Shown: piece after piece, positions 2,770 through 60,869 of the stretch
Numbering within the stretch: the first letter of the stretch is position 1
Layout of the letters: every line of letters begins with the position of its first letter
Source: an uncultured Verrucomicrobiae bacterium
Lineage (GTDB): Bacteria > Verrucomicrobiota > Verrucomicrobiia > Limisphaerales > Palsa-1400
DNA: 64,000 nucleotides
Reading direction: 5' to 3'
NCBI GenBank assembly: GCA_963707025.1
Contig: CAVPOM010000006.1
Span: 128,001 to 192,000 of the forward strand
Notes under the pieces: generated by a model
Told to the model about the DNA's origin: nothing
The model's database searches: none
Seen by the model: only the letters and a program-made list of their open reading frames with translations
Position numbers and translations under genes: made by a program

Positions 2770-3711
2770 TTGGCCTATAACCAGCGCGTGACCGGCGTTT
2801 CCTTGGAGTGCATCAATGCGAGCACGCGCTATTGCGCGGTGTTGGGGCATCCGGTCGGCCATTCCGCCTCGCCCGCCATGCAGAACGCGGGCCTGGGGGC
2901 GCTGGGTCTCAATTGGCGCTATCTGGCTTTCGAGGTCCACCCCCGGGATTTGCGCGCCGCCCTGGCGGGGGCCAAAGCGATGAAGTGGATCGGCCTCAAC
3001 CTCACCGTTCCCCACAAGACCGCCGCGCTGGAAATGGTGGATGTCGTCCATGAAAAAGCCCGGCTCCCCGGCGCTGTCAACACGATTGTCTTTGAGACGC
3101 CCGGCCCCAAGGGCGATTGGATTCCGCTGGGCCAGGCGGCGGAGGGCGGGAGCAGCGAGGTGCGCAGCCACGGCTACAACACCGACGGGGATGGTTTGGC
3201 GCGCTCCCTCAAGGAAGATTTCCAATGGCCGGATTTGCGCGGGGCGTCGGTGCTTCTTTTGGGCGCGGGCGGAGCGGCTCGGGCCGCGGCCCTGCAACTG
3301 GCGGACGAAGGCATTGCCAGCCTGTTTCTGGTAAACCGAACCGGGGCCAAGGCCGAACAACTGGCCTGCGAACTGGGAGCCCGCTTCCCGGGAATCCACA
3401 TCAGCACGCGGTTGCCTGACGATCCGGTTGATTTGGTCCTCAACGCAACCTCCGTCGGCTTGAATGCAAACGACGCGCCGCCCTTGGCGGAAGACTGGCT
3501 GAAAGCGCGGCGTCCTCCCCGGGTGTATGACATGATCTATCGCCCCGCGGAAACGGCCTTGCTGCGCGCGGCCGGCCAGGCGGGCTGTCGGACGGCCAAC
3601 GGCCTGGGCATGTTGCTTTACCAGGGCGCGGCGGCGTTGGAATTGTGGTCGGGCCGGCCGGCGCCCGTGGCCGCGATGCGCGCCGCTTTGCAGCAAAACA
3701 TTTATGGCTGA
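2770..3711 (+). CDS. aroE: Shikimate dehydrogenase (start uncertain)
   Basis: GHPVGHSASP, GLNLTVPHK, GAVNTI, GYNTDG, LGAGGAARA, NATSVG, DMIYRP, NGLGMLLYQG. Confidence 0.95.
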   Translation: MAYNQRVTGVSLECINASTRYCAVLGHPVGHSASPAMQNAGLGALGLNWRYLAFEVHPRDLRAALAGAKAMKWIGLNLTVPHKTAALEMVDVVHEKARLPGAVNTIVFETPGPKGDWIPLGQAAEGGSSEVRSHGYNTDGDGLARSLKEDFQWPDLRGASVLLLGAGGAARAAALQLADEGIASLFLVNRTGAKAEQLACELGARFPGIHISTRLPDDPVDLVLNATSVGLNANDAPPLAEDWLKARRPPRVYDMIYRPAETALLRAAGQAGCRTANGLGMLLYQGAAALELWSGRPAPVAAMRAALQQNIYG

Positions 3712-4816
3712 CCCCTCAATATGGAAGGCGTTGCCGTTTCATTTTTGGACGGTGACGGCGTTTGTCTTTGGCGCGGTGGTGGGAAGTTTCCTCAACGTCT
3801 GCATTCACCGGATGCCGCTGGGGGAAAGCATCATCAGCCCGCCGTCGCACTGTCCGCATTGCCGTTATTCCATCCCCTGGTATTTGAACATCCCTTTGTT
3901 CACCTGGTTGTGGCTGGGCGGACGATGCGCCCATTGCAAAGCGCCCATTTCCCCGCGTTATTTCGTGGTCGAACTGCTCACCGCCACGCTCTTCGCGGCT
4001 TGCTGGATAGAATTCGGCCGGATTTCCCCGCTGCTGCCGCTGGCTTATATGCTTCTCATCGCCGGCTTGATCGTTGGCTCTTTCATTGACCTGGCGCATC
4101 TGATCATTCCCGACCAAATCACTTACGGCGGCATGGTGGCCGGGCTGTTCTGTTCCTTTTTAGTGCCGCAGATGCACTTTGATTTTCCGGGGTTGACGCG
4201 TCTATCCGCTCCTGGAGCCGGCCTGGCGGACAGTTTCCTCGGCCTGGGCGTTGGGGCCGGCGTCATCTATGGCATCCTGCGCCTGGGAAAAATGTTTTTG
4301 GGCAGGCAAAAGGTGGATCTCCCGCCGGCCACCCGGATTCTCTTCACGGAAACGGGCGTGCAACTGCCCGGCGAGGAGATTGCCTACGAGGATTTGTTCT
4401 ATCGCAAGAGGGACGCGATCGAGTTGCAGGCCCGGCGCGTGGAACTGATTGACCGCTGCTATGCCAACAGCGCCGTGCAGTTGACCTCCGGCTGTTTGAA
4501 AATTGGCGGCGACACCTTCGATCCGGAGAAAGTCCTCTGCCTGGAAGTGGTGGCTGACCGCATCGTCCTGCCGCGCGAGGTGATGGGGCCGGCGGATGTG
4601 ACCTTTATGGCGGCCATCGGGGCGTTTTTGGGCTGGCCCGCGGTGTTTTTCTGCCTGGCCATCAGCTCGCTGCTCGGTTCCATTGTGGGCGGGACGGCGA
4701 TTGTTTTTAGAAAGCAGGACTGGTCCAGCCGGATTCCCTATGGTCCTTACATCGCGGTGGCGGCGGTGATCTGGATTTTTGGGGGATGCCAGTGGATGCG
4801 CGCGTTGTTGCCCTGA
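3704..4816 (+). CDS. pilD: Prepilin peptidase (peptidase A24) with internal soluble insertion
   Basis: GSFLNVCIHRMP, two CxxC motifs, catalytic Asp motifs FIDLAHLIIPD and MGPAD, C-terminal IPYGPYIA. Confidence 0.9.
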   Translation: MADPSIWKALPFHFWTVTAFVFGAVVGSFLNVCIHRMPLGESIISPPSHCPHCRYSIPWYLNIPLFTWLWLGGRCAHCKAPISPRYFVVELLTATLFAACWIEFGRISPLLPLAYMLLIAGLIVGSFIDLAHLIIPDQITYGGMVAGLFCSFLVPQMHFDFPGLTRLSAPGAGLADSFLGLGVGAGVIYGILRLGKMFLGRQKVDLPPATRILFTETGVQLPGEEIAYEDLFYRKRDAIELQARRVELIDRCYANSAVQLTSGCLKIGGDTFDPEKVLCLEVVADRIVLPREVMGPADVTFMAAIGAFLGWPAVFFCLAISSLLGSIVGGTAIVFRKQDWSSRIPYGPYIAVAAVIWIFGGCQWMRALLP

Positions 4817-6516: not shown

Positions 6517-6577
6517 CCCTGCCTGGAGGAAGCGGCAGGGGCGGGGAGGGGGAGGGCACTGATAATGGCCCTTATTT

Positions 6578-6593
6578 TGGCCCCGGATTTGCT
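6578..6593 (+). promoter_or_regulatory. Putative sigma54 promoter of the secretin operon
   Basis: TGGCCCCGGATTTGCT resembles the consensus TGGCACG-N4-TTGCW with exact GG-N10-GC spacing, in the intergenic region before 6765. Confidence 0.5.
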
Positions 6594-6764
6594 GAGGAAA
6601 GTTGATGCTTGCATTTCCTGGAACAAATCGCATATAACAGGACGTGCCACATTACGCATGGCTGAACGACTTATAGGAATGCCTGTTTTTGATGCACATT
6701 TGAGCGTCGCTGGCCCATTTAGGAACAAGGGGATGGGGAGCATTTTGCCGTGAACTAGAAAAAT

Positions 6765-7448
6765 ATGCCGATCCGAATCAACCTGATGGCCGAAGCGCAA
6801 GCCCTGGAAGAGGCGCGCCGGCGCAATCCCGTCAAATTGGGCGTCTGGATTGCCGGGTTCTGCGTGGCCGTGGTGGTGCTGTGGATCGCCAAGGTGCAAA
6901 TGGACATTTATTTCGCCAGGCTGGACTTGAGCAATCTCAATGCGCAGTGGAAGGCGGCGGAGGAAAAATACAACAACGTCACCAACGAAGAGGCCCGCAT
7001 CACTGCCATCAAGGGTAAAATCGCCGCCTTGGACCATCTCCAGACCAACCGGTTTCTGTGGGGCCCGGTCCTCAACGCGCTGCAGCAGACCGTGGTGGAC
7101 CAGATCCAGGTGACGCATATTTGGGCCCTGCAAACCTATGAGCGGGAGGGGCCCAAAACCTACGGCGCCGGCGCCACCATGAAGACGGTGCCGGGGTCGG
7201 CGAATTTTGAAAGAGTGAAGTTGTCCATCGCGGGGAAGGACTACAGCCCGACGGCGGAGGGCTACAAGAAGTACGAGGATACCCTGAACCATTTTGATTT
7301 CTTCGCCAAAAGGCTGGGCGGGCGCGACGGCTTCACCATTGACGGCGCGCCCGGCCCGAGATTCCCCGACGGGCCGGGTTCGTCCCGGGAATTCCGCACC
7401 TTCACCCTGACCAACCAGTTTCCGGACATCCGGCGCACCGACAAATGA
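6765..7448 (+). CDS. PilN/GspL-like bitopic alignment-complex protein
   Basis: N-terminal IRINL motif (PilN-type INLL), one TM helix, coiled coil, then W..VLNAL; first gene of a secretin operon. Confidence 0.75.
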   Translation: MPIRINLMAEAQALEEARRRNPVKLGVWIAGFCVAVVVLWIAKVQMDIYFARLDLSNLNAQWKAAEEKYNNVTNEEARITAIKGKIAALDHLQTNRFLWGPVLNALQQTVVDQIQVTHIWALQTYEREGPKTYGAGATMKTVPGSANFERVKLSIAGKDYSPTAEGYKKYEDTLNHFDFFAKRLGGRDGFTIDGAPGPRFPDGPGSSREFRTFTLTNQFPDIRRTDK

Positions 7449-8053
7449 CCAAGATCAACAAAACGCAACGAGACCAGTTGATCGCCGTGGCCCTGGGCAC
7501 GGCGGCGGTCATCGCCTGCTTGTGGTACCTGGTCGTCCTGGCGCAAAACAAACAACTGGCGGCGGCCGACGCCAGTTGCGCCAAGATGAAAGCCAAGCTC
7601 AAGGACGCCGCCGCCGAGGTGAGCAAGGCCGATAAGATCGGGCTGGATCTGACCAACAACCTGGAGGATCTCAGGCGGCGCGAAGTGGATTTCGCCCCCG
7701 AGCACGAGCCTTTCTCCTGGATGATGGAGAAAATGCGCAACTTCCAACTGCCGTCCAATGAACTGCACCGCTACAAGAGCGTTTCCATCGCCGACATCAA
7801 ACCGCCGGAAATCACCGACAAAGGAGGAGTGATCGCGGGCTTTCCCTACAAGTGGGCCAAGTTTCATATCACCGGCGAGGGCTACTACCACGATTTTGGG
7901 AAATTTATCGCGGACTTTGAGAATGCCTTTCCTTACTTTCGCATCCAGGACCTGGATATTTCCGTCCCCGGCATCCGCAAGGACCTGGATATGCTGTCTT
8001 ACAGCTTCAACATCGTCACGCCCCAGGTCCCGGGCGCGGCGGAAACAAAATGA
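7445..8053 (+). CDS. PilO/GspM-like protein
   Basis: N-terminal TM helix, coiled coil, PilO-like GYYHDFGKFIADFEN motif; ATGA overlap with the upstream gene. Confidence 0.75.
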   Translation: MTKINKTQRDQLIAVALGTAAVIACLWYLVVLAQNKQLAAADASCAKMKAKLKDAAAEVSKADKIGLDLTNNLEDLRRREVDFAPEHEPFSWMMEKMRNFQLPSNELHRYKSVSIADIKPPEITDKGGVIAGFPYKWAKFHITGEGYYHDFGKFIADFENAFPYFRIQDLDISVPGIRKDLDMLSYSFNIVTPQVPGAAETK

Positions 8054-8580
8054 AATTGCTGCGCACATGCCCCAAGAAAGCCGCGCTGGCCGCGGTGGCC
8101 GGAGTCTTGCTCGCCCTGGCCGTCCTGCCGGGATGCAACAAAGCGGCCAAGCCGGTCGCGGCTGCTCTCCCCAAGCCCGCCCCCGTCGCCAAAACCACGG
8201 GCGGGACGGGGACAAACCTCCCTGCGGAATTTGTCTCTGTATTTGACGACAGCCCGCCGCCAGGCAATACCGGCCGGGACCCGTTCAACCCCGACTCGAC
8301 CCTGCGGAATCCTGCCGCGGTGGGGCCGAAGATAACCGCCACCACGGTCGTGGCGGCTCCCCTGCTGAGGCTTTACAGCGTGACTGGATCACCGGGACGG
8401 TGGATGGTCGTCATCAACAACCAGATCATTGACTCTACAGAGATCAACAAGCCGATCCCTGTCCGTGTCCCGGGCGGCATCGTCACGGTAAGGGTCGTCG
8501 AAATCGGCGAGGATTATGCTAACGTCACGGTTGACGGCAGCCTCGCGACAAAGCGATTAACCATGGGCCAAAAAAAGTAA
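8050..8580 (+). CDS. PilP/GspC-like lipoprotein
   Basis: Lipobox LPGC, Pro/Ala linker, RDPF motif typical of PilP, short beta domain; lies between PilO-like gene and secretin. Confidence 0.65.
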   Translation: MKLLRTCPKKAALAAVAGVLLALAVLPGCNKAAKPVAAALPKPAPVAKTTGGTGTNLPAEFVSVFDDSPPPGNTGRDPFNPDSTLRNPAAVGPKITATTVVAAPLLRLYSVTGSPGRWMVVINNQIIDSTEINKPIPVRVPGGIVTVRVVEIGEDYANVTVDGSLATKRLTMGQKK

Positions 8581-8639
8581 CCACCCTGCACGCCATGAAA
8601 ATCTCCACCACTCACCCCTATCAAGACGGGCCAATCCTT

Positions 8640-10458
8640 ATGAAAATCAAACTTCTCATGTTTCTCATCATCCTGGTTGCGGCGCCCGCGCTGATAAGTC
8701 TGGCGCAGACCAACCAGCCAGGACCACAGCCGCAGTCCAACACCGTCGTGACGACCACGACCAGCAATGCACCCCCGATTGAGGCCCCTCTGCCAACGCT
8801 CCCGGTCCAGGGCTTCCCCACCCTGGGCGGCACCAACACAAATATGCCCGGGACCACCACCCCACCCGCCAGCAACACCACCCCGCCCGCCGCCATTGTT
8901 GTTGCCAGCGGCGACGAGCCCGAAGATATGACCTTTGACGATCTGCCGTTGCCCGACGCCGTGCGGCAGTTGGCCCTTCTGGCGGGGCTGAACATTCAGT
9001 TTGATCACCGGCTGGAAAATCCGGTGGACCCGGTGACCCACCTTCCCGTGGCGCTCCCGACGGTGAAGGAAAAATGGAAGAACCTGACCCCGATGCAAGC
9101 GTTGCGCGCCTTATTGGACAAGTATGACTGGCAGATGAAGACCAACCCCACCACTCCGGTCGTCATCATCAGCGCCAGAGAAGCCAACGCGGTCGAACCC
9201 CAGGTGACGGAACGTCATCCTCCTGGGCTACAGCGACCCGACCAACATCATGGCCGAAGTCAGCAAGGCGTTGCCGATGCTCGTCACCATCATTCCAAAC
9301 GTCCGCACTCACCAGGTCATCGTCCGGACAACGGAGCGAATGATGCCCGTCGTCAAGGAGCTCATCGCCCGGCTGGACAGCCAGACAGGGCAAATCTTGA
9401 TCGAAGCCAAGATCATCGAAACCCTCAAGGACATCAATACGGCCAAGGGGATTGATTGGACCGGCACACTCCAATCCCAGCATCTTAGTTTCGGCAATGG
9501 CCTGACCGGTGGAACCACCACCGCCACCACCCAATCCGGCAACAACCTGGCGGGCGCCTCCAGCACCACGACGGCGCCGGGGGGCCGCACTTCCACCACG
9601 GGAAGCCCCCTCACCAGCATCATCAACAACAGCAGCAGTTTCGTCACCACCACCGTGGGCAACGCCTCCCAGGCGGGAGGCATGACGGTCAACACCGCCA
9701 ATGGCTTCAACCCCAAGACCGCCTTCCTCAATGCGGATGGCGTCTCCGCCATCCTCGAGTTTCTCAATACCGATGCCGACACCAAGTCCATCGCCCTGCC
9801 GCGCACCGTCTCGCTCGACGGCCAGAAAACCACCTTGGCCGTCATTCAAAACATTCCTATTTTCCAACAACAGCAGAGCGCCCCGGCGGCCGGCGCCGTC
9901 GCGGGTCTGGCCACGGTGCTGCCCAATTATGAAGTCAAGGTCGGCGAGACGGTCCTCAACGAAGTCGGCTTCAAGCTCACCGTGACCCCCCGCATTGCCG
10001 GAGCGTCCAACGTGCTCATCACCGTCCAGCCGGAAATCTCCAGCGTGGACACCAAGATCGCGACCGACACGTTGAACGGCCAAGTGGAAACCTCCCCCAT
10101 CTTCGACCGGCGCCTGATTACCACCGTGGCGGCGGTGCCGAGCGGGTACACCCTGGTTCTGGGCGGCTTGGATAACGACGTGATGGCCAAGACCTATACC
10201 AAGGTGCCGGGGTTGGGCGACATACCGGGCATCGGCGCGTTGTTCCGCAGCAACACCAAGGACCATACGCGGGATACCATCCTGATTTTTGTCACCCCGA
10301 CCATCATTCGGGAGTCCGACTTCCAGCCCACCGTCACCGATTTCCTGCACAGCAAGAATGAGTCTATGCCGTCCCGCTACAACCCGGTCTGGGACCGCGG
10401 CGCGCCCTATGATTGGACCCAGCCAAAAGCGCCCGTTGAGCCGTACTATAAGCCCTGA
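8640..10458 (+). CDS. Secretin (GspD/PilQ family); +1 frameshift near 9210, probably a sequencing error
   Basis: ORF 8595..9455 gives the signal peptide and N domain; ORF 9250..10458 gives QILIEAKIIE, GFKLTVTPRI, GYTLVLGGL, KVPGLGDIPGIGALFR, LIFVTPTII. Removing one G at gtgacgg|aac joins them (EPQVT-NVILLGYSD). Confidence 0.9.
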
Positions 10459-10471
10459 ACACCCTCAAAAT

Positions 10472-13400
10472 ATGCAACTGGTTTTAAGAAACTGCGCGGG
10501 GGGAAAGGGGCGCCTGGCCGGGTGGGCTGCCCTTGTCGCCTGCCTGGCCGTGCTCGCCTGTGCTCCGGCACTCCGGGCGCAAATTGATTACGAGGAAACC
10601 AACGTCACCGTCACCACCATTGGCGGCGGACCGCCGCCGGGCAATCTTTGCGCCAGCCCGGCTGGGTTTGTGGATGGCAACACTCTGGAGGCATCCCAAT
10701 TTGACGGCCCCGTGGACGCGGCCCTGAATTCCCAGGGAACTCTCTTCATCGCCGACTACACCAATAACGCCATCCGCATCGTCACCTCCGTCGGGGACGC
10801 CGTCAACAGCATTACCGAAACGAAGTCCTTTTTCACCAACCTCCCCGGGGTGGTGGGCCTGGCCGTGGACGCGGCCGACAACCTGTATGTGCTGACGCAG
10901 GGCGACAAAATGCTGAGAAAATACAATTATTCGTACAATTTGCTTTTCAGCGAAGTCCTGCCGTTTACGCCTGCGGCGCTGGCGGTTTCCCTGGACTCGG
11001 CCACCAATATATTTGTCGCTTTCACTAATGGGGTGGTGCTGGAGCTGGCACAGAACGGGGTGAGTATTGTGAAAACAACCACCATCGTCGCCGGCGGCTC
11101 GAAACTGAAGCCCGGTGGCATCGCCTGGCGCAGCGATGGGGCTTTGGCCGTGAGCGACCTGGCCAATAACGCCATTTACCTCCTGGTCAACACCAGCAAC
11201 GCCATTCCCTTGCTCTACGCCGGCGGCGGCGCCAATGGTTCGACGGCGGGTTGGGTGGACGGCGTTTTCGGCTTTGCGGAGTTCAATGGACCGTGCGGCC
11301 TGGCCTGGTCGCCCGACGGCCAGTTGGTGGTGGCGGACCGTTTGAACAACGCGGTGCGGCGGATTAATGCCGCGGCCACCACCAGCACCATTTACGGGGT
11401 CAGTTCCAATCTTTGGACGGGGACCTTCTGTCATGCCACGCCCAATGCGATTTTCGCGGGCTGGGTGGATGGCGGTTTCGGCGAGGATCAAACCAACGCC
11501 ACCGGACGCGCCCCAGCCAGCGTGGTCATTGCCTCGTCCAGCACCATCTATGTCACCGAACTGTATTATGATCTGCTGCGCGAGGTGAAGGGAGTCACCT
11601 TCGGGAGCGGCACCAACGCCGTCAGCGCGACCAACGTGGTCATCCCGCCGCCGGTGTTCAGCCCCAATTCCGGATACTTCCCGGAATGCCAGACCATCTT
11701 GGTGACCAGTTTAGCCCCGTCGGTTTATTACACCACCGACGGAACGACCCCCACCACCAACAGCCCGACGGTGCAGATCACCAACATCAGCGTCGTCAAC
11801 GACCAGGTCATTTATGAAGGCTCCTTCCAGTGGTGCAATTCCCTCCTGGATTTGAGTTCCTTGCGCCTCATCACCGCCAGCGGCACCAACGTCAGCGTGG
11901 TCACCAACGGGGTCAGCAGCCTTGTCAATCAAATCGGCTTCCCGTTTTCCCGTGTCGCCGGCAGCGGTTCCACCGCGGTCATTCCCGTGGTGGTCAATTT
12001 GCAAAGCAACGCCACGCTGGCTTCGCTGCAATTCGACCTGGAAATCATTCCGACGACGGCCGCGACGCCGCCCATTGCGGCGGTGACCCTCCTGCCCATT
12101 TCCACCAACGATTTCCTCCAGTTGGTCAGGCAGGCCCCTGGCAATGCGCCGGTCAATTACCAAAGCTTCCCTTACTTTCCGGGGAGCAACGGGCTGGGTT
12201 TGGCCATCCTGGCGCCGGCGGTAAATTCCGGATTGAACGTGCATAATTTCGCGGTGTTGACGTTGTTGGAAGTTCCCATTCCCGCAACGGCGGTCGAAGG
12301 GCAAAGTTACACGCTCAATGTCCGTGACGCTTCCGGCACCTCCAATGCGGCCCAAGGCACCGTGCTGTTCGCCTCCCTGCCCATCCAGACCCTGACCATT
12401 TCCAACTACCAGTATTTTGCGGGGGATTCCTCGCCCTCCAGCGGATACGAGGCGGGCGAATTTGGCGACGGCGCCCTCAACAACAGCGATGTCAACAATG
12501 CGCTCCTCGCCTCCCTGGGCATCCATGTTCCCTTCACCTTCACCGATGCTTACAGCGCGATGGATGTGTATCCTGAAACGGCCACGGAAATAGGGGACGG
12601 CTTGATCACCTATCTGGATTGGCAGCATATTTTGCTGCGCTCACTCGGGGTCGAGACCAACAACTGGGTCCGCTTCTGGACCAACGGCGGCTTTCTCTCG
12701 CACAAGCGCATCGCCTGGTCGCCCGGCCAGACCGTCCCCGTCGGCGTTTCCCCAAATCTTGCGCTGGCCACCGCCGGGACCCGCGCCGTGGCCACTCCCC
12801 AGCCGGGGGTGGCTTGGTTGCGGCAGGCTACCATCCACGCCGGAACCATTGCCCAATTGACTCCTGGCAATACCTATTCCATCCCGGTCTATGTCAATGT
12901 CCTGCCGGGCTGCAGCTTGTCCGGCCTGCAATTCCGCGCCATGCTCGTGCCCAACGGCGCGGCCCCCGCGCCGGGCCAGATTCAATTTAACGCCGTGCCC
13001 GGCCTGCCCCCTCCTTACGCCTCCGCCGCTGGACTCTCGCCCAACGACATCATATACGCCGTGTCGCTCTCCCAGCCTTTCACGCCGGCGCTCCAGGGCA
13101 GCAACGCCCTCGGCTCCATTTCGTTCCAAGTCCCGCCTGGCGCGCAAGCCGGGCAATCCTACACCTTGCGTTTTTCGGGGGTGGACGGGTCGCCCGACTT
13201 CGATACGGCCTATCAATTGGAAAGCGTGCCCGGCTCGGCCTGGGTGAAATCCGCCGCGCTCAGCCCGCCGCAAACCACCTCCGACGAGTGGCGGATGTAC
13301 TTCTTCGGCAGCCTGACCAACGCCCTGGCGCAGGACAATGCGGACCCGGACGGGGACGGCATGGCCAACTGGCAGGAATATCTGGCCGGGACCAATCCCA

Positions 13401-13645
13401 CCAACGCCCTCTCCGCGCTGCAATTCGCCGGGGCCGGGTTGGTCCCCGGCGGCGCGCCCAACATCAATTTGAGCTGGCAGACGGCGCCGGGCAGGCTCTA
13501 CGTCCTGGAATCCAGCCCGGTGGCCGGGGGAAACAACTGGACGCCTGTCAACACCAATCTGGGTGATGGCAACGCCTTCCAGGTTGTCCTGACCAACCAC
13601 ACGGGGACCGCGCGCTTCTATCGCCTCCAACTACTCCAGCCATGA
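10472..13645 (+). CDS. Large secreted protein: NHL repeats, Fn3-associated/CHB_HEX_C-like domain, cohesin-like, dockerin-like, cohesin-like, DPDGDG Ca-binding repeat, C-terminal FYR domain
   Basis: Signal peptide ending ALRA|QI; NHL motifs (QFDGPVDAALNSQGTLFIADYTNNAIR); PPVFSPNSG...YYTTDGTTP; IPVVVNLQSNATLASLQFDL; paired GD...GDGALNNSDV and DV...GDGLITYLDW; DPDGDGMANWQEYLAGTNP; RFYRL. Domain names are from motif recognition. Confidence 0.8.
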   Translation: MQLVLRNCAGGKGRLAGWAALVACLAVLACAPALRAQIDYEETNVTVTTIGGGPPPGNLCASPAGFVDGNTLEASQFDGPVDAALNSQGTLFIADYTNNAIRIVTSVGDAVNSITETKSFFTNLPGVVGLAVDAADNLYVLTQGDKMLRKYNYSYNLLFSEVLPFTPAALAVSLDSATNIFVAFTNGVVLELAQNGVSIVKTTTIVAGGSKLKPGGIAWRSDGALAVSDLANNAIYLLVNTSNAIPLLYAGGGANGSTAGWVDGVFGFAEFNGPCGLAWSPDGQLVVADRLNNAVRRINAAATTSTIYGVSSNLWTGTFCHATPNAIFAGWVDGGFGEDQTNATGRAPASVVIASSSTIYVTELYYDLLREVKGVTFGSGTNAVSATNVVIPPPVFSPNSGYFPECQTILVTSLAPSVYYTTDGTTPTTNSPTVQITNISVVNDQVIYEGSFQWCNSLLDLSSLRLITASGTNVSVVTNGVSSLVNQIGFPFSRVAGSGSTAVIPVVVNLQSNATLASLQFDLEIIPTTAATPPIAAVTLLPISTNDFLQLVRQAPGNAPVNYQSFPYFPGSNGLGLAILAPAVNSGLNVHNFAVLTLLEVPIPATAVEGQSYTLNVRDASGTSNAAQGTVLFASLPIQTLTISNYQYFAGDSSPSSGYEAGEFGDGALNNSDVNNALLASLGIHVPFTFTDAYSAMDVYPETATEIGDGLITYLDWQHILLRSLGVETNNWVRFWTNGGFLSHKRIAWSPGQTVPVGVSPNLALATAGTRAVATPQPGVAWLRQATIHAGTIAQLTPGNTYSIPVYVNVLPGCSLSGLQFRAMLVPNGAAPAPGQIQFNAVPGLPPPYASAAGLSPNDIIYAVSLSQPFTPALQGSNALGSISFQVPPGAQAGQSYTLRFSGVDGSPDFDTAYQLESVPGSAWVKSAALSPPQTTSDEWRMYFFGSLTNALAQDNADPDGDGMANWQEYLAGTNPTNALSALQFAGAGLVPGGAPNINLSWQTAPGRLYVLESSPVAGGNNWTPVNTNLGDGNAFQVVLTNHTGTARFYRLQLLQP

Positions 13646-16600
13646 CCACGACACAAAAATCCAACCGGCCCTCCGGCGGCCTGAAGCGGGCCGGCGGAAT
13701 ATTGGCCGCGATGCTTTTCGCCGCCGCCCTGCACGGCCAGCAACAAATCGCCACCGCCATTGCCACGGGCCTGAATCAGCCGGGCTTCGTGACCAGCGAC
13801 CCGGACGACAACATTTACCTGACCAACACTGTCAACAATCGCATCGTCGAGTTCATTCCCCTGACCAATGGCGTGTTCACCCTGGCGGGGTCGGGCACGG
13901 CCCAGTCCGGATTGAGCAACAGCGTTTTCGGCGATCAGGCTCTTTTTTCCTATCCTTTGGGCATTGTCTATGATCCCTTCCGCGGCGGATTGGTGGTGGT
14001 GGATCAGGTCAATCAAGTGTTGCGGCTGGTCACTCTGGGCGGCGCGGTCTCCACCCTGGCCGGCATCCCCTCCACCCTGGCCAACCCGGACGGCGGCGCC
14101 AACGACGGCACGGCGGCCACGGCCCAGTTCAGCGACCCGGTCGGCATCGCGACCAACGGCGTCGGCAACCTGTATATCGCCGACACGGGCAACAACGCCA
14201 TCCGCCGCGTCAACAGCACCAACGGCGTGACCACCGTGCAGGTGATCAACTACACCTTCTACGGCCCGACGGCCGTGGCGTTGGACACCAATAACAACCT
14301 TTGGGTGGCCGACACCAGGAACGACACCATTTGCGTCATCAGCAATATCAGTGTCATCGGCAAGCAATCCGCCTACGTCATCGCCGGCACGCTCGGCCAC
14401 ACCGGCACCAACGATGCGGCCAACGCGTCCAGCGCCTTGTTCAACCAGCCGGGCGGGTTGCTCTGGGACCCGAATGGAGCCGGTTTGCTCATCAGCGACA
14501 CCGGCAACAACACCGTCCGGCGGCTCTATCCCAACCTGGCGCAGGGCGGCTGGTCCGTGCAAACCGTGGCCGGCCTTCCGGGCGTGGCGGGAAAGACGGA
14601 CGGCGTGATCTCCATCGCCGAATTGAGTTCTCCGCTTGGCCTGACGGTGGATGCCGTCAATAACGGCTATTACATCGTGGACATGAAGAACAATGAGTTG
14701 CGCCGTTATCAAACCGGCCCGCCCCAGCCGCCGGTGCAGAACCCGCAAATCGGGTTGGTCACCTTTCCCATCAATCCCGCGACCGGGCAACCGTCCTCCC
14801 TGTTCACCGCGCTGCCCGAGGGCGGCATTTTCAACACCAACAACATTATCGCCATTTTCAATACGGACTCCGACCCGAACGTGCAGACCTATTACCTGGT
14901 GACCAACACGCCGCCCAACCAGTTTGTCAACCCGCCGATTCCCGGCACCAATTCGCTCTTCGCCCCCAATTATCCGGGAAACGGCTCGCCGGAAACCGTG
15001 CAGGACACGACCACCTTGTTCCAACCGCGGCCTTACGAGGTGACGCTCTATGCGATCAGCCTGGCCCGGGGCCGCGCCCCCAGCCAGGTGGTCAGCGCCA
15101 ATTTTTCCTATATCACGGCCCCGCCGGTCATCGGCGGCAACAATGGCGCCACGGTGCAATTGACGGATCTGACCGTGCCTTCGACCATGTGGTACACTTT
15201 GAACAGCAACGCGCCGGTGGTCAACGGGGCCGGCAGCTTTGGGCCGCTCAGCTCTCCCGCCACGATTTCCTTCGTGGTCAACAGCAACGTCACTCTCACG
15301 GTGCAGGCCTATTCCCCCGGCTTTGCTCCCAGCGCCCTGGTCTCCCAAACATTTGCGGCCTCCAATTTCGTCACCGATCAAATGACCTTCGGCTTTGCCT
15401 CGGGTGAAGCTTCCAGCCAGTTCCTGGCAGCCGCCGGGCATCGTTTTTACGTGCCCGTGACCCTGAGCCTCCTGCCGGCCTCCACCATGTATTCCCTGCA
15501 GTTCAACGTCACCGTCACCAACCTGGCCGGCGCTCCGCCGGTCGGGACGACTTACACGTTCGACTCCATGCTCGTCCAGCCCGTCGAAATCAACGGGCAA
15601 TTATTCTATGAAACGATTCCCACAGAGATGTTCACCAACGGCGGGTTTCAAGACCTGCGCTTCACCAATTCCAGCCTCAACCTGCTGGGCGTCGGCTGGC
15701 TGGAAATTCCGCCGGAGACCAATTTATACAACACTGTGGGACAGACCTTGATCACCTATTCGCTGGCGCACGAAACCGTCTTCAATAGTTCGTCCGGCAG
15801 CGTGATCGTTGGCGCCTATTCCTTTGACATTCCCGGCGGCGCCGTCACCAACCAAGCCTATCAAATCCAAATCGGCCGCCCCTCCGCCGATGGAGACGGT
15901 TTCGCCCAGAACGTTCTCATCCAGGCTCCGACCAATGGCTCCCTTGGGGTGGGGGCCATCAATTCCATCAAGAATGTCACGGTGAGTGTCATCCCCTACT
16001 TGGTGGGCGATGTGGCCCCCTTCCGCTGGTTCAACGCCGGTGATTTTGGCGACGGCAATCTCCTCAACAATGACGTTTTGGAAGTATTCCGCGCCGCCGT
16101 TTACCAACTGGAGAGAACTTTGCCCGGCAGCGATTTCTTTGACGCCTTGGATTCTTCCGATGGTTCCTTCAACGATTATTACACCGAGACCGATGCGCAG
16201 ATTAACAACATTTTATTCGGCGACGGGAAATTGGACGTGACCGATGTCTATGTGACCTTCCGCCGCTCCTTGGATCCTTCTTTAAATTGGATCCAGCGAT
16301 ACTGGTCCAATAATGGCGCCGGTGGTTCAGCCTTGTTCGCGCAGACCGTCCCCAACGTGCTTAATCCAGCCAATCCATCCGTGGCCAAGTCGCCGGCGGT
16401 GCGCGTCCCTCAAGTGTCCACCCCGACGCCGCATTTCATCGCGGTCGGGGCGGATGTTGTCCAGGCGGGCGGCAACCAAACTGTGTCGGTGCCCGTCCGT
16501 GTTCTGGCGGCGGATCCCCTTCCCATCCGCGTGCTGATGCTGAACGTGGATGTCATCCCGCTCGACGGCTCTCCCGCCGTGACCAACGCCGTCGCTTTCT

Positions 16601-17238
16601 CCCCCGCCGCCGTTTTGGGGACGCCTGCCATGTCCATGTCGCAAGGCGCCAATAACTACGCCGCCGCCTGGCTTAATTCCTCCAACTCCGGCGTCAGCGG
16701 CACCAATGTCATCGGCACGGTCACCGTCACTTTGCCGCCCGGTGTCACCGCCAATTCGTCTTACCTGGTGCATTTCGAGCATTTCTCCGCCTCGCCCAAC
16801 GGCCTGGCTCTGTTCCAATCCACCATCACGGACGGCTTGATTACGGTGGGCAATCGCACTGGTTCGAGCTGGGGCGATGGCATCCCGGACACCTGGCGGC
16901 TGCTTTGTTTCGGCACCGTTTCCAACCTTCTCTCCGCCGCGAACCTCGATCCCGATGGCGACGGCGCATCCAACTGGCAGGAGTACGTGGCCGGCACCAA
17001 TCCGATGGATCCCGCCTCCGTGCTGCGGTTGACGCCGCTGGCGCCCGCTCCCAACTTCACCGTGCAATGGCCTTCCGTGCCGGGCAAAACTTATATGGTG
17101 CAGAGTTCGGTTTCCCTGTTCTCCACCAACTGGTCCGTCACTGCCAGCAACCTGCCTGGCACCGGCCAAATGATGCAGCTCTCCGACACCAACACCCCCG
17201 CCCCGCCGGCCAGATTCTACCGCGTCCAGGTGCAATAA
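13642..17238 (+). CDS. Large secreted paralog with the same NHL / cohesin-like / dockerin-like / cohesin-like / FYR architecture
   Basis: Signal peptide; NHL (QFSDPVGIATNGVGNLYIADTGNNAIR); VPVTLSLLPASTMYSLQFNV; YLVGDVAP...GDGNLLNNDV and GDGKLDVTDV; DPDGDGASNWQEYVAGTNP; RFYRV; ATGA overlap with the upstream paralog. Confidence 0.8.
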   Translation: MTTTQKSNRPSGGLKRAGGILAAMLFAAALHGQQQIATAIATGLNQPGFVTSDPDDNIYLTNTVNNRIVEFIPLTNGVFTLAGSGTAQSGLSNSVFGDQALFSYPLGIVYDPFRGGLVVVDQVNQVLRLVTLGGAVSTLAGIPSTLANPDGGANDGTAATAQFSDPVGIATNGVGNLYIADTGNNAIRRVNSTNGVTTVQVINYTFYGPTAVALDTNNNLWVADTRNDTICVISNISVIGKQSAYVIAGTLGHTGTNDAANASSALFNQPGGLLWDPNGAGLLISDTGNNTVRRLYPNLAQGGWSVQTVAGLPGVAGKTDGVISIAELSSPLGLTVDAVNNGYYIVDMKNNELRRYQTGPPQPPVQNPQIGLVTFPINPATGQPSSLFTALPEGGIFNTNNIIAIFNTDSDPNVQTYYLVTNTPPNQFVNPPIPGTNSLFAPNYPGNGSPETVQDTTTLFQPRPYEVTLYAISLARGRAPSQVVSANFSYITAPPVIGGNNGATVQLTDLTVPSTMWYTLNSNAPVVNGAGSFGPLSSPATISFVVNSNVTLTVQAYSPGFAPSALVSQTFAASNFVTDQMTFGFASGEASSQFLAAAGHRFYVPVTLSLLPASTMYSLQFNVTVTNLAGAPPVGTTYTFDSMLVQPVEINGQLFYETIPTEMFTNGGFQDLRFTNSSLNLLGVGWLEIPPETNLYNTVGQTLITYSLAHETVFNSSSGSVIVGAYSFDIPGGAVTNQAYQIQIGRPSADGDGFAQNVLIQAPTNGSLGVGAINSIKNVTVSVIPYLVGDVAPFRWFNAGDFGDGNLLNNDVLEVFRAAVYQLERTLPGSDFFDALDSSDGSFNDYYTETDAQINNILFGDGKLDVTDVYVTFRRSLDPSLNWIQRYWSNNGAGGSALFAQTVPNVLNPANPSVAKSPAVRVPQVSTPTPHFIAVGADVVQAGGNQTVSVPVRVLAADPLPIRVLMLNVDVIPLDGSPAVTNAVAFSPAAVLGTPAMSMSQGANNYAAAWLNSSNSGVSGTNVIGTVTVTLPPGVTANSSYLVHFEHFSASPNGLALFQSTITDGLITVGNRTGSSWGDGIPDTWRLLCFGTVSNLLSAANLDPDGDGASNWQEYVAGTNPMDPASVLRLTPLAPAPNFTVQWPSVPGKTYMVQSSVSLFSTNWSVTASNLPGTGQMMQLSDTNTPAPPARFYRVQVQ

Positions 17239-17300: not shown

Positions 17301-18764
17301 CTACTGGATGGCCAGTTCCTGCTTGATTTTGAATTTTTCCACGCGCTTGCGCAAGGTGGCCCGCGTGATGCCCAGAAGTTTGGCGGCCTGGACCTGGTTG
17401 CCTTTGGTTTCCAACAGGGCTTGGATGATGAGTTCCCGTTCCACCGCGGGCAGAACTTTCAGTTGGCCCTCCTGGCGCGCCCATTCAAACAAGGTTCGCC
17501 CCACCGCCGCCCAGTCCAACAGGCCGCCTCCCCCCGCCGGAGCGGCCGCCTTCTCGGGCGGGGCCGGGCCGGGCTTGTCCAGTCCGGCCGCCGGGAGGCT
17601 GGAGATTTCCACCGGGAGGTCGCCCGGCAAAATAACATCGCCCTTGGCCATGACGGTGGCCCGCTGGACCACGTTCTCCAGTTCCCGCACGTTGCCCGGC
17701 CAGTGGAACCGCTCCAGCAGTTCGGCCGCCGCCGGCAGGATGGACTTGGGGGCGCGCCCCTGGGCCTGGGCGAACTTCTTTAAAAAATAGTTGACAAGCA
17801 GGGGAATGTCGTCCCGCCGCTCGCGCAGCGGGGGAATGGGCACGCGCACGACGTTGAGGCGGTAAAACAAGTCCTCGCGGAATTCGCGGGCGGCCACGGC
17901 CTGTTCCAGCGGCTTGTGCGTGGCGGCGATGACCCGCACGTCCACTTGGATGGATTGGTTGCCGCCGACCCGCTCAAAGGCGCCGGACTGGAGGACGCGC
18001 AGGATTTTGGCCTGGGTGGAGAGGGTCATGTCCCCGATCTCGTCCAGGAAAATGGTGCCGTGGTTGCACTGCTCGAATTTGCCGATGCGCTGGGCGGCGG
18101 CGCCGGTAAAAGCGCCTTTTTCGTGGCCGAACAATTCGCTTTCCAGCAAGTTTTCCGGGATGGCGGCGCAGTTGATGGCCAGGAAAGTCTGGGCGTTGCG
18201 CTGGCTGTGATGATAAATGGCGCGCGACACCAGTTCCTTGCCCGTGCCGCTTTCCCCGGTGATCAGCGCGGTGGCGTCGCTCCCGGCCAGTTGCCCGATG
18301 ATTTTGAAGACGTTCTGCATCCTTTCGCTGCGCCCGATGATCCCCAAATCGTAATCCTCCGATTCGAGCAACGGCTGGTAGGAAACGACCTGGCGCATGT
18401 CGCGGGCGGCCTTGAGGGCGTCCAGGACAACCTGCTTGAGCCGGGGCACATCGAAGGGTTTGAGCAGATAATCGTAAGCGCCCAACTTCATCGCCTCGAT
18501 GGCGGTCTGGGTGGTGCCGTAGGCCGTCATCATGATGACCATTTGTTTGGCGTCCATCTGGCGGAGGCGGCGGAGGGTTTCCAGGCCGCTCATCCCGCCC
18601 ATGCGCACGTCCATGATGACCAGGTCTGGTTTGAGGCGGGGGATGAGCTTCAACCCCTCCTCCCCGCTGTCCGCCGTGGTCAACTGGATTTCCGGCTGGT
18701 CAAAAATGCGGCGGAACGAGTATTGCACGTCCGCTTCGTCATCAATTAAAAGGAGCTTGTCCAT
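17301..18764 (-). CDS. Sigma54-dependent response regulator (NtrC family: REC-AAA+-Fis HTH)
   Basis: MDKLLLIDDE, GESGTGKE, GAFTGA, WPGNVRELEN, C-terminal AAKLLGITRATLRKR. Confidence 0.95.
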   Translation of the reverse strand: MDKLLLIDDEADVQYSFRRIFDQPEIQLTTADSGEEGLKLIPRLKPDLVIMDVRMGGMSGLETLRRLRQMDAKQMVIMMTAYGTTQTAIEAMKLGAYDYLLKPFDVPRLKQVVLDALKAARDMRQVVSYQPLLESEDYDLGIIGRSERMQNVFKIIGQLAGSDATALITGESGTGKELVSRAIYHHSQRNAQTFLAINCAAIPENLLESELFGHEKGAFTGAAAQRIGKFEQCNHGTIFLDEIGDMTLSTQAKILRVLQSGAFERVGGNQSIQVDVRVIAATHKPLEQAVAAREFREDLFYRLNVVRVPIPPLRERRDDIPLLVNYFLKKFAQAQGRAPKSILPAAAELLERFHWPGNVRELENVVQRATVMAKGDVILPGDLPVEISSLPAAGLDKPGPAPPEKAAAPAGGGGLLDWAAVGRTLFEWARQEGQLKVLPAVERELIIQALLETKGNQVQAAKLLGITRATLRKRVEKFKIKQELAIQ

Positions 18765-19954: not shown

Positions 19955-20079
19955 ACGCGCAACACCGTTTGTGGTGGTGATTGCCGGAAACCGCCTAAAA
20001 ATGAACCAAACTATGCGTGAAATCTTTCCCCTTCCCTTTCCTCAATATGCGATTATGCGGGACCCCTCTGGCTTCTTGC

Positions 20080-20239
20080 GGTTTGAGGCGGGGGATGAGC
20101 TTCAACCCCTCCTCCCCGCTGTCCGCCGTGGTCAACTGGATTTCCGGCTGGTCAAAAATGCGGCGGAACGAGTATTGCACATCCGCTTCGTCATCAATTA
20201 AAAGGAGCTTTTCCATGTTCACGCGCCCGCAGCATAACC
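20080..20239 (-). pseudogene. Orphan 5' fragment of the response regulator (direct repeat copy 2)
   Basis: Encodes MEKLLLIDDEADVQYSFRRIFDQPEIQLTTADSGEEGLKLIPRLKP from ATG 20216, after which homology stops. Confidence 0.92.
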
Positions 20240-27695: not shown

Positions 27696-29153
27696 TCAGG
27701 CGGCCACTTCTTCATCGGCCAGCTTGCGGTAGAGGGTGGCCACGCTGACATTGAGGAGTTGGGCGGCTTTTTCCTTGTCGCCCCCCGCCAGGGCCAGGGC
27801 CCGGTTGACGTAGCTCAGTTCCTGCTCGCGCAGATAATCCTTCAGCGGACCCAGCGGCTGGGCCAGGGCATGACCGGCGCCAGCCTGGGCATTGACGGGT
27901 GAGGCCGGCAGGCCGGAGGATCCCTCTGCGGCTGTTTCGGCAATTTCGACCAGCTCCTCGCTGCCGCCGCTCGGAGTCTGGCGGCGCACGGCCGGGGGCA
28001 GATCGGTCACCCGGACGGTGTCCGCTTCGCACAAGACGCAGGCGCGTTCGATGGCGTTTTCCAATTCGCGCACGTTGCCCGGCCAGTCATGCGCCGAGAG
28101 CACATCCAGGGCCTGGCGCGTAATTTGAAAGAGCTTGCCGGTGCGCGGATTGACCTTGTTGCGCAGGAAGTGGACGGCCAGGACCGCCACGTCCTCGCGG
28201 CGCTCGCGCAGATTGGGCAAGGTGATGGGAATGACGTTGAGCCGATAGTAAAGGTCCTCGCGAAAAGTGCCGGCCTTGACCCTCTGCTCCAACGGTTCGT
28301 TGGTCGCGGAGAGCACCCGCACGTTGACGCTGGTGGCAATGTTGTCGCCCACGCGCCGGACTTCCCGTTCCTGCAAGACGCGCAGCAGGCGGCTCTGCAA
28401 AACCGGCGGCATGGAGCTGATTTCGTCCAGGAAGATGGTGCCGCCGTCGGCCTCCTGGAAAAGCCCCTTCTTATCGTTGATCGCCCCGGTGAAAGCGCCC
28501 TTGCAATGGCCGAAAAGCTCCGATTCCAGCAGGTTCTCCGGCAGGGCGCTGCAGTTGATCGGGATGAACGGGGCGAACTGGCGGCGGCTGTTGAAATGCA
28601 GGGCGCGGGCCACCAGTTCCTTGCCCGTCCCGCTTTCGCCCAGGATGAGGATGGTGCTGTCGGTGTCGGCCACCCGTTCGATCATCTTGAAGACCTCCTG
28701 CATCTTGGGTGAATTGCCAATGAGCTGGTTGAACTGGTATTTCTTCTTGAGCTGTTTCTTGAGGTAAATGTTCTCCGTGATGGCGTCGTTGTAGCTCAGG
28801 GCGCGGCGCACGCACAGGCGGAAATCATCCACCTTGAACGGCTTCTCCAAATAATCGAAAGCCCCTTTTTTCATGGCATCCACCGCCGTCTCGATGGTGG
28901 CGTAGGCGGTGATGAGGATGACGGTGGCGGGCGGATTGAGGGCGCGCGCCTTTTGCAGGATTTCCAGGCCGTGGGTGCGGGTTTTGTCCAGATACAGGTC
29001 AGTGATGACCAATTCGGGACACTGCGACTCCAAGGTTTCCACGGCCGCGTTGTAATTGCTGAAGGGAAAGACCTCGTGGCCTTCCCGGCGGAGAATTTCG
29101 GTGACCATCTGGACCATGGTCACTTCATCGTCAATCAGCAGCACTTTTGCCAT
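27696..29153 (-). CDS. Sigma54-dependent response regulator (PilR/ZraR/AtoC-like)
   Basis: REC domain, GESGTGKE, GAFTGA, WPGNVRELEN, Fis HTH; directly downstream of pilC. Confidence 0.93.
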   Translation of the reverse strand: MAKVLLIDDEVTMVQMVTEILRREGHEVFPFSNYNAAVETLESQCPELVITDLYLDKTRTHGLEILQKARALNPPATVILITAYATIETAVDAMKKGAFDYLEKPFKVDDFRLCVRRALSYNDAITENIYLKKQLKKKYQFNQLIGNSPKMQEVFKMIERVADTDSTILILGESGTGKELVARALHFNSRRQFAPFIPINCSALPENLLESELFGHCKGAFTGAINDKKGLFQEADGGTIFLDEISSMPPVLQSRLLRVLQEREVRRVGDNIATSVNVRVLSATNEPLEQRVKAGTFREDLYYRLNVIPITLPNLRERREDVAVLAVHFLRNKVNPRTGKLFQITRQALDVLSAHDWPGNVRELENAIERACVLCEADTVRVTDLPPAVRRQTPSGGSEELVEIAETAAEGSSGLPASPVNAQAGAGHALAQPLGPLKDYLREQELSYVNRALALAGGDKEKAAQLLNVSVATLYRKLADEEVAA

Positions 29154-29266
29154 GGCCCAACTGTAGGCAAGACCGGCCCCAGCCGCAAGCCGCATTGCAA
29201 GCTGGCAACTTCAGGCTGCCGCGGCCATGGCCACAACTCCCGGCCAGGCCTGCTGAGTTGGTTTTC

Positions 29267-30478
29267 TCAGTGCTTGCCGGAGACCAGGTCGCTCAACTTG
29301 AAAATGGGCAGGAACATGCAGATGACGATGCCGCCCACCACCACCCCCAAAAACACGATGAGCAACGGTTCGATCAAGGAGGTCAATCCGTCCAGCGTCG
29401 TTTTGATTTCGTCATCCAGAAAATCGGCCACCCGTTCCAGCATGTTGTCAATCTTGCCCGTTTGTTCTCCGGCCGTGAGCATGCGGATGATCATGACCGG
29501 GAAAACCGGATGCTTGGCCAGGGCGGTGGAAATGCCTTCGCCCCGTTCAATGTCCACCGCGGCCGTTTTCAGCGCGTTTTCCATCACGATGTTGCCGACG
29601 GTGTTTTGCACGATGGTCAGCACCTCCAGAATCGGCACGCCGCTGCGCACCAGCGAGGCCATGGTCCGGGCGAAACGCGCCAGGCAGATCTTATGGGCAA
29701 TGACGCCGAAAATGGGCAGCTTGATCCGTCTGGCGTCCCAAAAGGCGCGCCCCATCGGCGTGCTGATGTAATAGAACCAGCCGCCCACAATCCCGATCAT
29801 CCCCACAAAGAGCAAAATCAGGTGTTCCTTCATGAAGGTGCTGACCGTGATGAGGAACAGGGTCGGGCCCGGCAGCTTGCCGCCGAAGCCGGAAAAAACA
29901 TCCTTGAACACCGGCACCACCACCACCATGAGGAAAATAGTGATGCTAATGGCCACGATCGTCACCGCCACCGGATACATCAGGGAAGACTTCACCTTCT
30001 TGCGCAGGCGGGCGGTGTTTTCCAGGTAGGTGGCCAGGCGGCTGAGAATTTCCGCCAGCAAGCCGCCCTTTTCCCCCGCGCCCACCATGGAATAATAAAG
30101 CCGGTTGAACACCTTGGGATGCTTCTGCAATGCCTCCGAAAAACTGTCGCCCCCTTCCACCCGCGTCGTCACGTCCTTGATGACGTCCCGCATCACTTTA
30201 TGGTCCGTCTGGTCCGCCAGGGCCTGGAGGGACTGGACCATGGCCAGACCGGCGTCAATCATGGTGGACAATTGCCGGGTGAAAATGACCAGATCGGCCA
30301 AAGCCACCTTGCCGCCGCCGGTGCGGCCCTTTTTCCCCAGCTTTTCGCTGATGGAAACCACCAGCATATTGCGGTTTAAAAGCGCGGCCACCGCGTTGGC
30401 CTCGGTGGACGCGTCAATCGAAGCGCGGATTTCCCGGCCGCTGACTGAATCGCGGGCAACATAGCTAAAAGATGGCAT
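29267..30478 (-). CDS. pilC: Type II secretion system F family / type IV pilus platform protein
   Basis: FTRQLSTMIDAGL, VEGGDSFSEAL, GEKGGLL, YPVAV, GEQTGKID, LIEPLLIV, MFLPIF. Confidence 0.93.
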   Translation of the reverse strand: MPSFSYVARDSVSGREIRASIDASTEANAVAALLNRNMLVVSISEKLGKKGRTGGGKVALADLVIFTRQLSTMIDAGLAMVQSLQALADQTDHKVMRDVIKDVTTRVEGGDSFSEALQKHPKVFNRLYYSMVGAGEKGGLLAEILSRLATYLENTARLRKKVKSSLMYPVAVTIVAISITIFLMVVVVPVFKDVFSGFGGKLPGPTLFLITVSTFMKEHLILLFVGMIGIVGGWFYYISTPMGRAFWDARRIKLPIFGVIAHKICLARFARTMASLVRSGVPILEVLTIVQNTVGNIVMENALKTAAVDIERGEGISTALAKHPVFPVMIIRMLTAGEQTGKIDNMLERVADFLDDEIKTTLDGLTSLIEPLLIVFLGVVVGGIVICMFLPIFKLSDLVSGKH

Positions 30479-60837: not shown

Positions 60838-60869
60838 CATGTTTAATCGCTCCCGATCCGCAGCTCAGC

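Follow-up and report, generated by a model that had tools for sequence, protein, structure and literature searches.

We analysed a window of 64,000 nucleotides (positions 128,001 to 192,000 of contig CAVPOM010000006.1, assembly GCA_963707025.1) from an uncultured bacterium of the Limisphaerales, a mostly uncultured order that is common in soils and sediments. Four small genes on the + strand of the window, pilN-O-P-Q, are the rear of a pilMNOPQ operon whose pilM sits on another contig in this genome, and the module secretin together with partners scattered over the genome very probably makes up a type IVa-like pilus, which from its gene content is probably retractile. Behind the secretin gene lie two genes for signal-peptide proteins of more than 1000 amino acids (aa), hereafter the giants, which are optional, restricted to the order and likely a surface adhesin of the pilus. 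On balance, we favour a model in which this type IVa-like pilus carries an optional adhesin, likely attached to the pilus machinery, that holds out a propeller on its stalk and would chain by cohesin-dockerin contacts.

Genomes are referred to by G-codes, G000 being the source genome (the window's own assembly), and the contigs of G000 by C-numbers. Homologs of its genes bear names that indicate the Verrucomicrobiota, order Limisphaerales. The coordinates confirmed the layout described from the sequence alone, in which the four small genes are followed after 13 bp by the two giant genes, all on the + strand, with no pilM, ATPase or pilin gene in the operon:

6765-7448, + strand: pilN-like gene, 227 aa, N-terminal INL motif; weak match to the PilN part of the Amuc_1101 family; follows pilM in other families.
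7445-8053, + strand: pilO-like gene, 202 aa; weak T2SSM/GspM-like matches; the G028 ortholog scores above the PF04612 cut-off.
8050-8580, + strand: pilP-like gene for a predicted lipoprotein, 176 aa; assigned by position and a lipobox-like LPGC.
8640-10458, + strand: PilQ-like secretin gene (signal peptide, STN/N0, one N3, secretin domain); PF00263 E 3e-34; layout from intact orthologs; frameshifted near 9209-9211.
10472-13645, + strand: giant 1, 1057 aa; NHL propeller, Ig-like domain, cohesin-like domain (11918-12406), dockerin-fold domain (12404-12685), cohesin-like domain (12797-13252), TSP3, C-terminal domain.
13642-17238, + strand: giant 2, 1198 aa; NHL propeller (residues ~32-361), two Ig-like domains, cohesin-like domain (15364-15990), dockerin-like domain (15988-16317), cohesin-like domain (16423-16857), TSP3, C-terminal domain (~17017-17235).

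The pilMNOPQ operon and its scattered partners

G000 encodes a stand-alone PilM of 348 aa at C3:329679-330725 (TIGR01175 as the best match), in a cluster (C3:329679-334643; L046:7680-12644) in which pilM stands behind four minor-pilin-like genes (127, 210, 140 and 569 aa) and a gene for a 189-aa secreted protein. Homologs of this cluster lead straight into pilMNOPQ in G058, G035, G137 and G098. In families outside the window's own (f1), the PilM ortholog is the first gene of the operon, directly before pilN and sometimes preceded by minor-pilin-like genes, indicating that the module is a pilMNOPQ operon whose first gene was relocated in the window's family. PilN, PilO and PilP were assigned from position and weak matches only, and a family search with the pilP-like protein gave no match.

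We examined the co-occurrence of the secretin with candidate partners in 201 genomes of the order, each at least 85% complete and one of them unpublished (G215), on which no conclusion depends by itself; orthologs were split from paralogs by E-value cut-offs of our choice, the tallies were taken among kin, which overstates their independence, and draft genomes lose genes. The secretin was present in 141 of the 201 genomes, and an MshEN-type PilB with an MshE-type cyclic di-GMP (c-di-GMP) motif (C5:298503-300245; 652 bits against the TIGR02538 cut-off of 676) was present in 149. Both occurred together in 133 genomes, the secretin alone in 8, this PilB alone in 16 and neither in 44. A family of 125-aa N-methyl pilins, which has 8 matches in G000 and presumably provides the major subunit, gave a similar split (both, 126; secretin only, 15; pilin only, 20; neither, 40). 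The PilB of contig C4, used as a control, gave 128 genomes with both, 13 with the secretin only, 41 with PilB only and 19 with neither, and it was present in the module-lacking families f8, f22, f32, f43 and f71.

Two partner genes lie in the window outside the operon, where they had been reported before:

3704-4816, + strand: pilD prepilin peptidase (PF06750/PF01478), ~2 kb upstream of the operon.
29267-30478, - strand: pilC platform protein, ~19 kb downstream of the secretin gene, co-occurring with the module secretin.

An ortholog of the window pilC (66-75% identity) was detected in all 20 of the module-bearing genomes chosen and in none of 20 module-lacking genomes, where two paralog matches of 49-50% were seen. 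The PilT-like ATPase at C5:192237-193301 (PF00437, from the Pfam scan only) had a 78-84% ortholog in five of five module-bearing genomes and matches of at most 50% identity in five of five module-lacking genomes, a small sample. The pilD gene adjoins the module in close relatives only (G003 alone among the 36 loci compared) and probably serves all type IV filament systems in common. The components of a type IVa pilus, namely PilB and PilC, PilT, and a pilin with a prepilin peptidase, were thus each found, PilT from the small sample. The co-occurrence of PilB, PilC, PilT and the pilin with the secretin fits one scattered type IVa-like pilus, and that of PilB, the pilin and PilC bears out the earlier proposal that the ATPase, platform and pilins are supplied in trans. 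A model described in a section of PMC6668835 counts pilT among the mandatory components and pilM, pilP and pilY among the accessory ones.

Several further genes were seen around these partners. Directly upstream of the partner PilB gene lies a gene for a TPR + MshEN protein (C5:297646-298497; L052:7647-8498), which suggests c-di-GMP control of the pilus. At least seven dispersed 125-aa pilin paralogs occur in G000 (C2:34343, C5:526175, C6:97880, C6:724422, C9:360966, C18:595261 and C18:700362); they are 59-89% identical to the C18:700362 copy, and relatives contain tandem arrays. In six loci that lack giants (L061, L064, L065, L067, L076 and L077), a short PilC-like gene, the ortholog of C15:130438-131457, is found no more than ~6 kb from pilQ.

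We next consider the secretin itself. Its gene is present between pilP and the giants, as had been described, but it is not intact in the assembly, a frameshift near 9210 having been missed. Compared with three congeners, it has one additional base near 9209-9211, which breaks the reading frame into two (8640-9455 and 9250-10458). The frameshift is probably an assembly error, since the congeners lack the extra base, most relatives carry the secretin as a single open frame of ~520-710 aa, and similar apparent frame breaks affect 9 of the 92 checkable conserved loci of the G000 assembly; they are also seen in T2SS ATPases on C16 and C6 (T2SS, type II secretion system). Broken genes of this assembly therefore call for caution. 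Among the assembled contigs of three sequencing runs, none spanned the frameshift site.

The secretin has the STN plus one N3 layout of PilQ, with one Secretin_N match in each of three intact orthologs, yet it scores below the PilQ cut-off and nearer to GspD. The intact orthologs gave no AMIN match. In a tree of 109 secretin rows, built without named reference PilQ or GspD sequences, the 65 rows from the module grouped together with a support of 99, and the remaining 44 secretins of the order fell outside this clade. Matches inside the order had E-values of 1e-90 or better, whereas the best ones in 229 genomes from elsewhere reached only 1e-62 to 1e-73. G000 contains five clear secretins and one weak match, a point in favour of the earlier reading; among the other loci are two with a GspE-to-GspD arrangement, a further locus that pairs a secretin with an ATPase, and one Amuc_1098-1101-like cluster (C14). 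A second copy of the module-type secretin was found in two genomes, at L043 (G010 C237) and at G132 C22/C43; the G010 copy has its own giant-like gene behind it and groups with distant families. In addition, a 281-aa signal-peptide protein (C4:872846-873691; L056:6847-7692) has two stretches 45-54% identical to the secretin N0/STN region and no secretin domain.

We compared the locus with known systems. It shares with the type IVa pilus operons of Pseudomonas, Myxococcus and Neisseria the order pilM-N-O-P-Q, separate PilM, PilN, PilO and PilP encoded in an operon with the secretin, a lipoprotein PilP, the STN-N3-secretin layout, and scattered pilB, pilC, pilT/U, pilins and minor pilins. It differs from them in that pilM has moved away, no AMIN domain was matched, no PilY1 was found (no PF05567 match in G000), giants stand behind pilQ, and the secretin falls below the PilQ cut-off and forms its own clade among the order's secretins. 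The Akkermansia Amuc_1098-1102 cluster is likewise a PilM/N/O/P/Q-type module of a member of the Verrucomicrobiota without an ATPase of its own, but PilM and PilN are fused there, and the separate Amuc-like C14 secretin of G000 belongs to another clade. Neither hallmark of a T2SS was seen: the 348-aa PilM and 227-aa PilN are separate rather than joined in a GspL-type fusion, and PilT co-occurs; the secretin does not show an N0-N1-N2-N3 series reaching the GspD cut-off, its C-terminal piece scoring 158 bits against a cut-off of 351.

The giant proteins behind the secretin gene

A cohesin-dockerin profile detected giants in 74 of the 201 order genomes, in arrays of one to five, and found none in 230 genomes of other orders. 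In 69 of the 74 giant-bearing genomes, the secretin is followed on its own strand by a giant at a distance of at most 6 kb, and 136 of 146 giant copies lie within 25 kb of the secretin; four weak duplicates and the two secretin rows that had no coordinates are not included in these counts. The five exceptions comprise one shown contig break (G209), one case with both genes at contig ends and three drafts of 250-460 contigs without a listed secretin. The linkage between this secretin clade and NHL-cohesin-dockerin genes, to which the sequence-only reading had looked for support, is thus present. The giants are also dispensable: their presence changes seven times on the secretin tree (at least six forced), giant-bearing secretins do not form a clade, and both states occur within genera, with giants in two of four genomes of g26 and two of four of g33. 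No replacement large gene was found behind pilQ in most of the 20 loci inspected. Short secreted genes stand behind pilQ in G028 and G038, with no match to the giants' domains, and such a gene is also present in G098.

The sequence-only reading had taken the locus for a secretin module akin to a T2SS, with the co-transcribed giants as its dedicated cargo and a pseudopilus drawn from elsewhere in the genome. The strict linkage of giants and secretin, the greater proximity of the secretin to GspD than to PilQ models, the short 125-aa pilins and the lack of an AMIN or PilY1 match would suit such an exporter. The separate PilM and PilN without a GspL fusion, the co-occurrence of PilT, the giant-free modules (70 of 141, mostly without a replacement large gene in the loci inspected), the scatter of giant-bearing secretins over the tree and the two GspE-to-GspD-type loci elsewhere in G000 argue against it, and we consider it distinctly unlikely. 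The notion of a module specialised in exporting its own cargo found no support, as the module is an order-wide pilMNOPQ with PilT, is giant-free in half of the genomes that carry it, and the giants' C-terminal domain occurs genome-wide and also in genomes in which the module secretin was not found.

Linkage to pilQ could also reflect regulation only, the giants being co-transcribed, co-regulated surface adhesins of a sigma-54 and c-di-GMP attachment programme with no physical tie to the pilus. Their C-terminal domain, common to ~105 unrelated proteins, and their repeated gain and loss on the secretin tree, even within g26 and g33, would agree with this. Under mere co-regulation, relocation would be expected, whereas every one of the 10 of 146 giant copies listed away from pilQ is either separated from it by a contig break or comes from a genome without a listed secretin, and the other proteins with the C-terminal domain are scattered. 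We therefore regard co-regulation without a physical tie as unlikely on balance.

We then examined the domain architecture of the giants. Both have signal-peptide-like N-termini. The AlphaFold2 model of giant 2 had a mean pLDDT of 87, and its propeller matched the SOQ1 NHL propeller with Z 40.8 and rmsd 2.0 over 305 aligned residues; in whole-protein fold searches, the propellers were the sole matches returned. A Pfam scan of G000 gave no cohesin or dockerin match. Profiles of the two beta domains flanking the dockerin had cohesins as their top PDB matches (E 4e-4 to 0.04), PF00963 was weakly matched by 6 of 58 giant-family members, and the cohesin-like domains were all-beta in the model, so that profile matches and the whole-protein model together point to a cohesin-type beta-sandwich. 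The 94-aa domain between the cohesin-like domains was modelled with a pLDDT of 85 (the best of five models; the others reached 43-60). In a Foldseek search with this model, the best 24 rows listed were all dockerin or cohesin-dockerin chains (probability at most 0.89, TM to target 0.6-0.7, E >0.3), and the predicted structure contains a dockerin fold with two calcium-binding loop-helix repeats. A search of the domain profile against PDB sequences gave no match. The cohesin/dockerin-like character noted earlier is thus supported by profile and fold comparison, despite the lack of a Pfam match. A complex prediction of the second cohesin of giant 2 with the dockerin of giant 1 scored 0.02, with an uncertain partner fold, and was not used either way.

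Across the family, the stalk is variable, with up to ten CHB_HEX_C/Fn3-associated repeats, Fn3 domains, Ig domains or a second propeller, and total length ranges from ~920 to at least 2857 aa; the C-terminal module is conserved. Mean identity was 48% for the propeller, 63% for the dockerin and 77% for TSP3. No catalytic domain was recognised. No other dockerin-like protein was found in G000, either by PF00404 or by the family dockerin profile, which found only the two giants among 41,598 open reading frames (ORFs). This result makes an enzyme scaffold less likely, and the only visible partners of the giants are the giants themselves; since each giant carries both dockerin and cohesin folds, self-chaining is suggested. 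The surface scaffold proposed earlier found no clients. A cellulosome- or planctosome-like scaffold collecting dockerin-bearing enzymes would suit the domain content of each giant (a dockerin-fold domain and two cohesin-like domains), but the genome, which is 88% complete, yielded no dockerin-bearing enzymes, and we judge this the least probable of the alternatives. The giants do resemble proteins of the 'planctosome' proposed for freshwater Planctomycetes (PMC6461901) in carrying a signal peptide, in combining cohesin with dockerin in a single chain, in their TSP3 repeats and in their origin in the PVC superphylum; they differ in the absence of dockerin-bearing enzymes, in the NHL propeller and in the strict link to a pilus secretin, which the sections of that paper on the planctosome do not mention.

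The giants are also comparable to the PilY1/PilC tip adhesins, as presented in the sections of PMC13190605 that describe them: both are proteins of ~1000 aa or more with a beta-propeller, calcium-binding motifs, variable paralogs and a place at a type IV pilus locus. The defining feature of PilY1 in the same sections is a seven-bladed PF05567 propeller at the C-terminus, and its gene is found alongside minor pilins. No such C-terminal propeller is present in the giants, which instead have an N-terminal NHL propeller, a cohesin-dockerin-cohesin series and a C-terminal domain found genome-wide, stand behind pilQ and are optional.

In our favoured model, pilN-O-P-Q would form the alignment and outer-membrane channel part of the type IVa-like pilus, which is encoded at scattered loci and likely retractile. 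Each giant would cross the inner membrane by Sec and reach the surface most likely via a general route that reads the shared C-terminal domain. There, a stalk made up of 1-10 Ig/Fn3 repeats would present the N-terminal NHL propeller, and the predicted dockerin and cohesin folds may chain each giant to its paralogs in a calcium-dependent manner, at the pilus tip or around the secretin. The giants would thereby fill the role held elsewhere by PilY1.

Several points weigh against this model. The C-terminal piece of the secretin scored 158 bits against GspD and 122 bits against PilQ models, both far below cut-off, and the PDB comparison also favoured GspD over PilQ (183 versus 143 bits). The cohesin E-values are modest (best 4e-4), the dockerin Foldseek E-values exceed 0.3, and the adhesin model as a whole is drawn from genes and predicted folds. 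The co-occurrence counts come from kin and so suggest more independence than they have, and in a genome that is 88% complete a PilY1 or a dockerin may have been missed. The giants' propeller is N-terminal and of NHL type, unlike the C-terminal propeller of PilY1. Finally, there is no giant in 70 of the 141 secretin genomes, so a giant cannot be an essential priming factor.

The same linkage could place the giants in the envelope, as a periplasmic or outer-membrane structural collar of the secretin that replaces the missing AMIN anchor. The giants always stand beside pilQ, the secretin has no AMIN match, and cohesin-dockerin pairs could form a ring. We consider a collar very unlikely: the giants are dispensable in half of the genomes, and the variable stalk and faster-diverging propeller fit an outward-facing adhesin better. 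Under the adhesin model, the order-restricted family would join type IV pili with cohesin-dockerin coupling, a combination absent from the literature searched. A full-text search, with subscription journals mostly outside its coverage and supplements excluded, returned no title or abstract opening on the locus, the giant family or the terminal domain. The analysis also gives a gene-by-gene assignment of a full, scattered pilus system in an order whose surface machines are little described.

The C-terminal domain

The giants end in a ~70-aa beta domain (W, ...FYR...), which in the window lies at 13406-13642, 17017-17235 and 48205-48432. An iterated profile showed that it ends 105 proteins of G000 (122 domain hits); the same profile had no match among reversed ORFs. 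The carriers are unrelated, mostly membrane-helix-free proteins scattered over the genome. The domain was found in 199 of the 201 order genomes and in 62 of 150 genomes of other orders, and it occurs in 88,526 clusters of a representative library, the last match being C-terminal in 136 of the best 150. It corresponds to no named family in Pfam, NCBIfam or Atlas. A weak match to the carbohydrate-binding module (CBM) stretch of a glucanase (E 3e-5, 46/75 positions) was not accepted as evidence of membership in a CBM family.

The C-terminal domain (CTD) of the type IX secretion system (T9SS) is a short export or sorting domain on many unrelated signal-peptide proteins. The ~70-aa domain resembles it, and PEP-CTERM, in being short and in forming the very end of numerous signal-peptide proteins that are otherwise unrelated; unlike them, it has no Pfam or NCBIfam match and is a soluble beta domain without a transmembrane helix. 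From its position, the domain would be an export or anchoring signal, and as a candidate secretion signal of the phylum it is open to direct testing.

The module secretin was rejected as the general exporter of these proteins, because at least 20 matches of the domain occurred in 44 of 60 secretin-less genomes. Five secretin-less genomes rich in the domain contain only distant secretins and no PilM ortholog. The abundance of the domain without the module secretin and PilM indicates that the module is not its general exporter; more probably, the domain marks proteins for a different, general route of export. A tentative wider reading, which we consider possible but rather doubtful, is that this pilus lineage swapped PilY1 for self-chaining cohesin-dockerin adhesins tagged by the ~70-aa domain, which would be the export signal of a further secretion route used throughout the Verrucomicrobiota, in each genome by tens to hundreds of surface proteins.

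One lead for the exporter is the C4 pilB-pilT-pilB-pilC cluster with an Amuc-like secretin. At the cut-off applied, the C4-type PilB is missing from families f36 and f9, which have 0-2 matches of the domain; it is missing from f2 and f10 as well, yet these have 15 to at least 28 matches, so the link is not clean. The third copy of the domain in the window belongs to a ~1000-aa secreted protein with three DUF7901 repeats (45406-48435, + strand).

Promoters, regulators and other features of the window

Three features bear on the expression of the operon:

6577-6593, + strand: sigma-54-type -24/-12 motif, GG at 6579-6580 and GC at 6591-6592.
6609-6638, + strand: sigma-70-like promoter, TTGCAT-18 nt-TATAAC, aligned in 14 of 19 loci of the window's family.
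17301-18764, - strand: NtrC-family sigma-54 response regulator, convergent with the operon; a frequent neighbour, in giant-less loci too.

The GG-N10-GC motif reported before the operon is present at 6579-6592, and the convergent NtrC-family gene was likewise found where described. Of 56 related loci, 19 have a sigma-54 pattern in the 330 bases before the first gene (pilM or pilN), compared with ~1 expected from shuffles. A scan for consensus sigma-70 promoters and terminators found no promoter, missing the site at 6609-6638, and detected terminators at chance level only. The NtrC-family gene, earlier put forward as a possible activator of the operon, is adjacent in 18 of the 56 loci and directly abuts pilQ in several giant-less genomes. 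The frequency of the sigma-54 motif was independent of this adjacency (6 of 18 adjacent loci and 13 of 38 non-adjacent loci). A second sigma-54 response regulator gene lies directly behind pilC (27696-29195, - strand) and is an alternative, PilR-like candidate activator of the operon. A 73-aa fragment at 19995-20216 (- strand) is near-identical to the N-terminus of the NtrC-family gene and may be a partial duplication or an assembly relic. At 58473-63884, the window carries a group of insertion-sequence-like ORFs with copies elsewhere in the genome.

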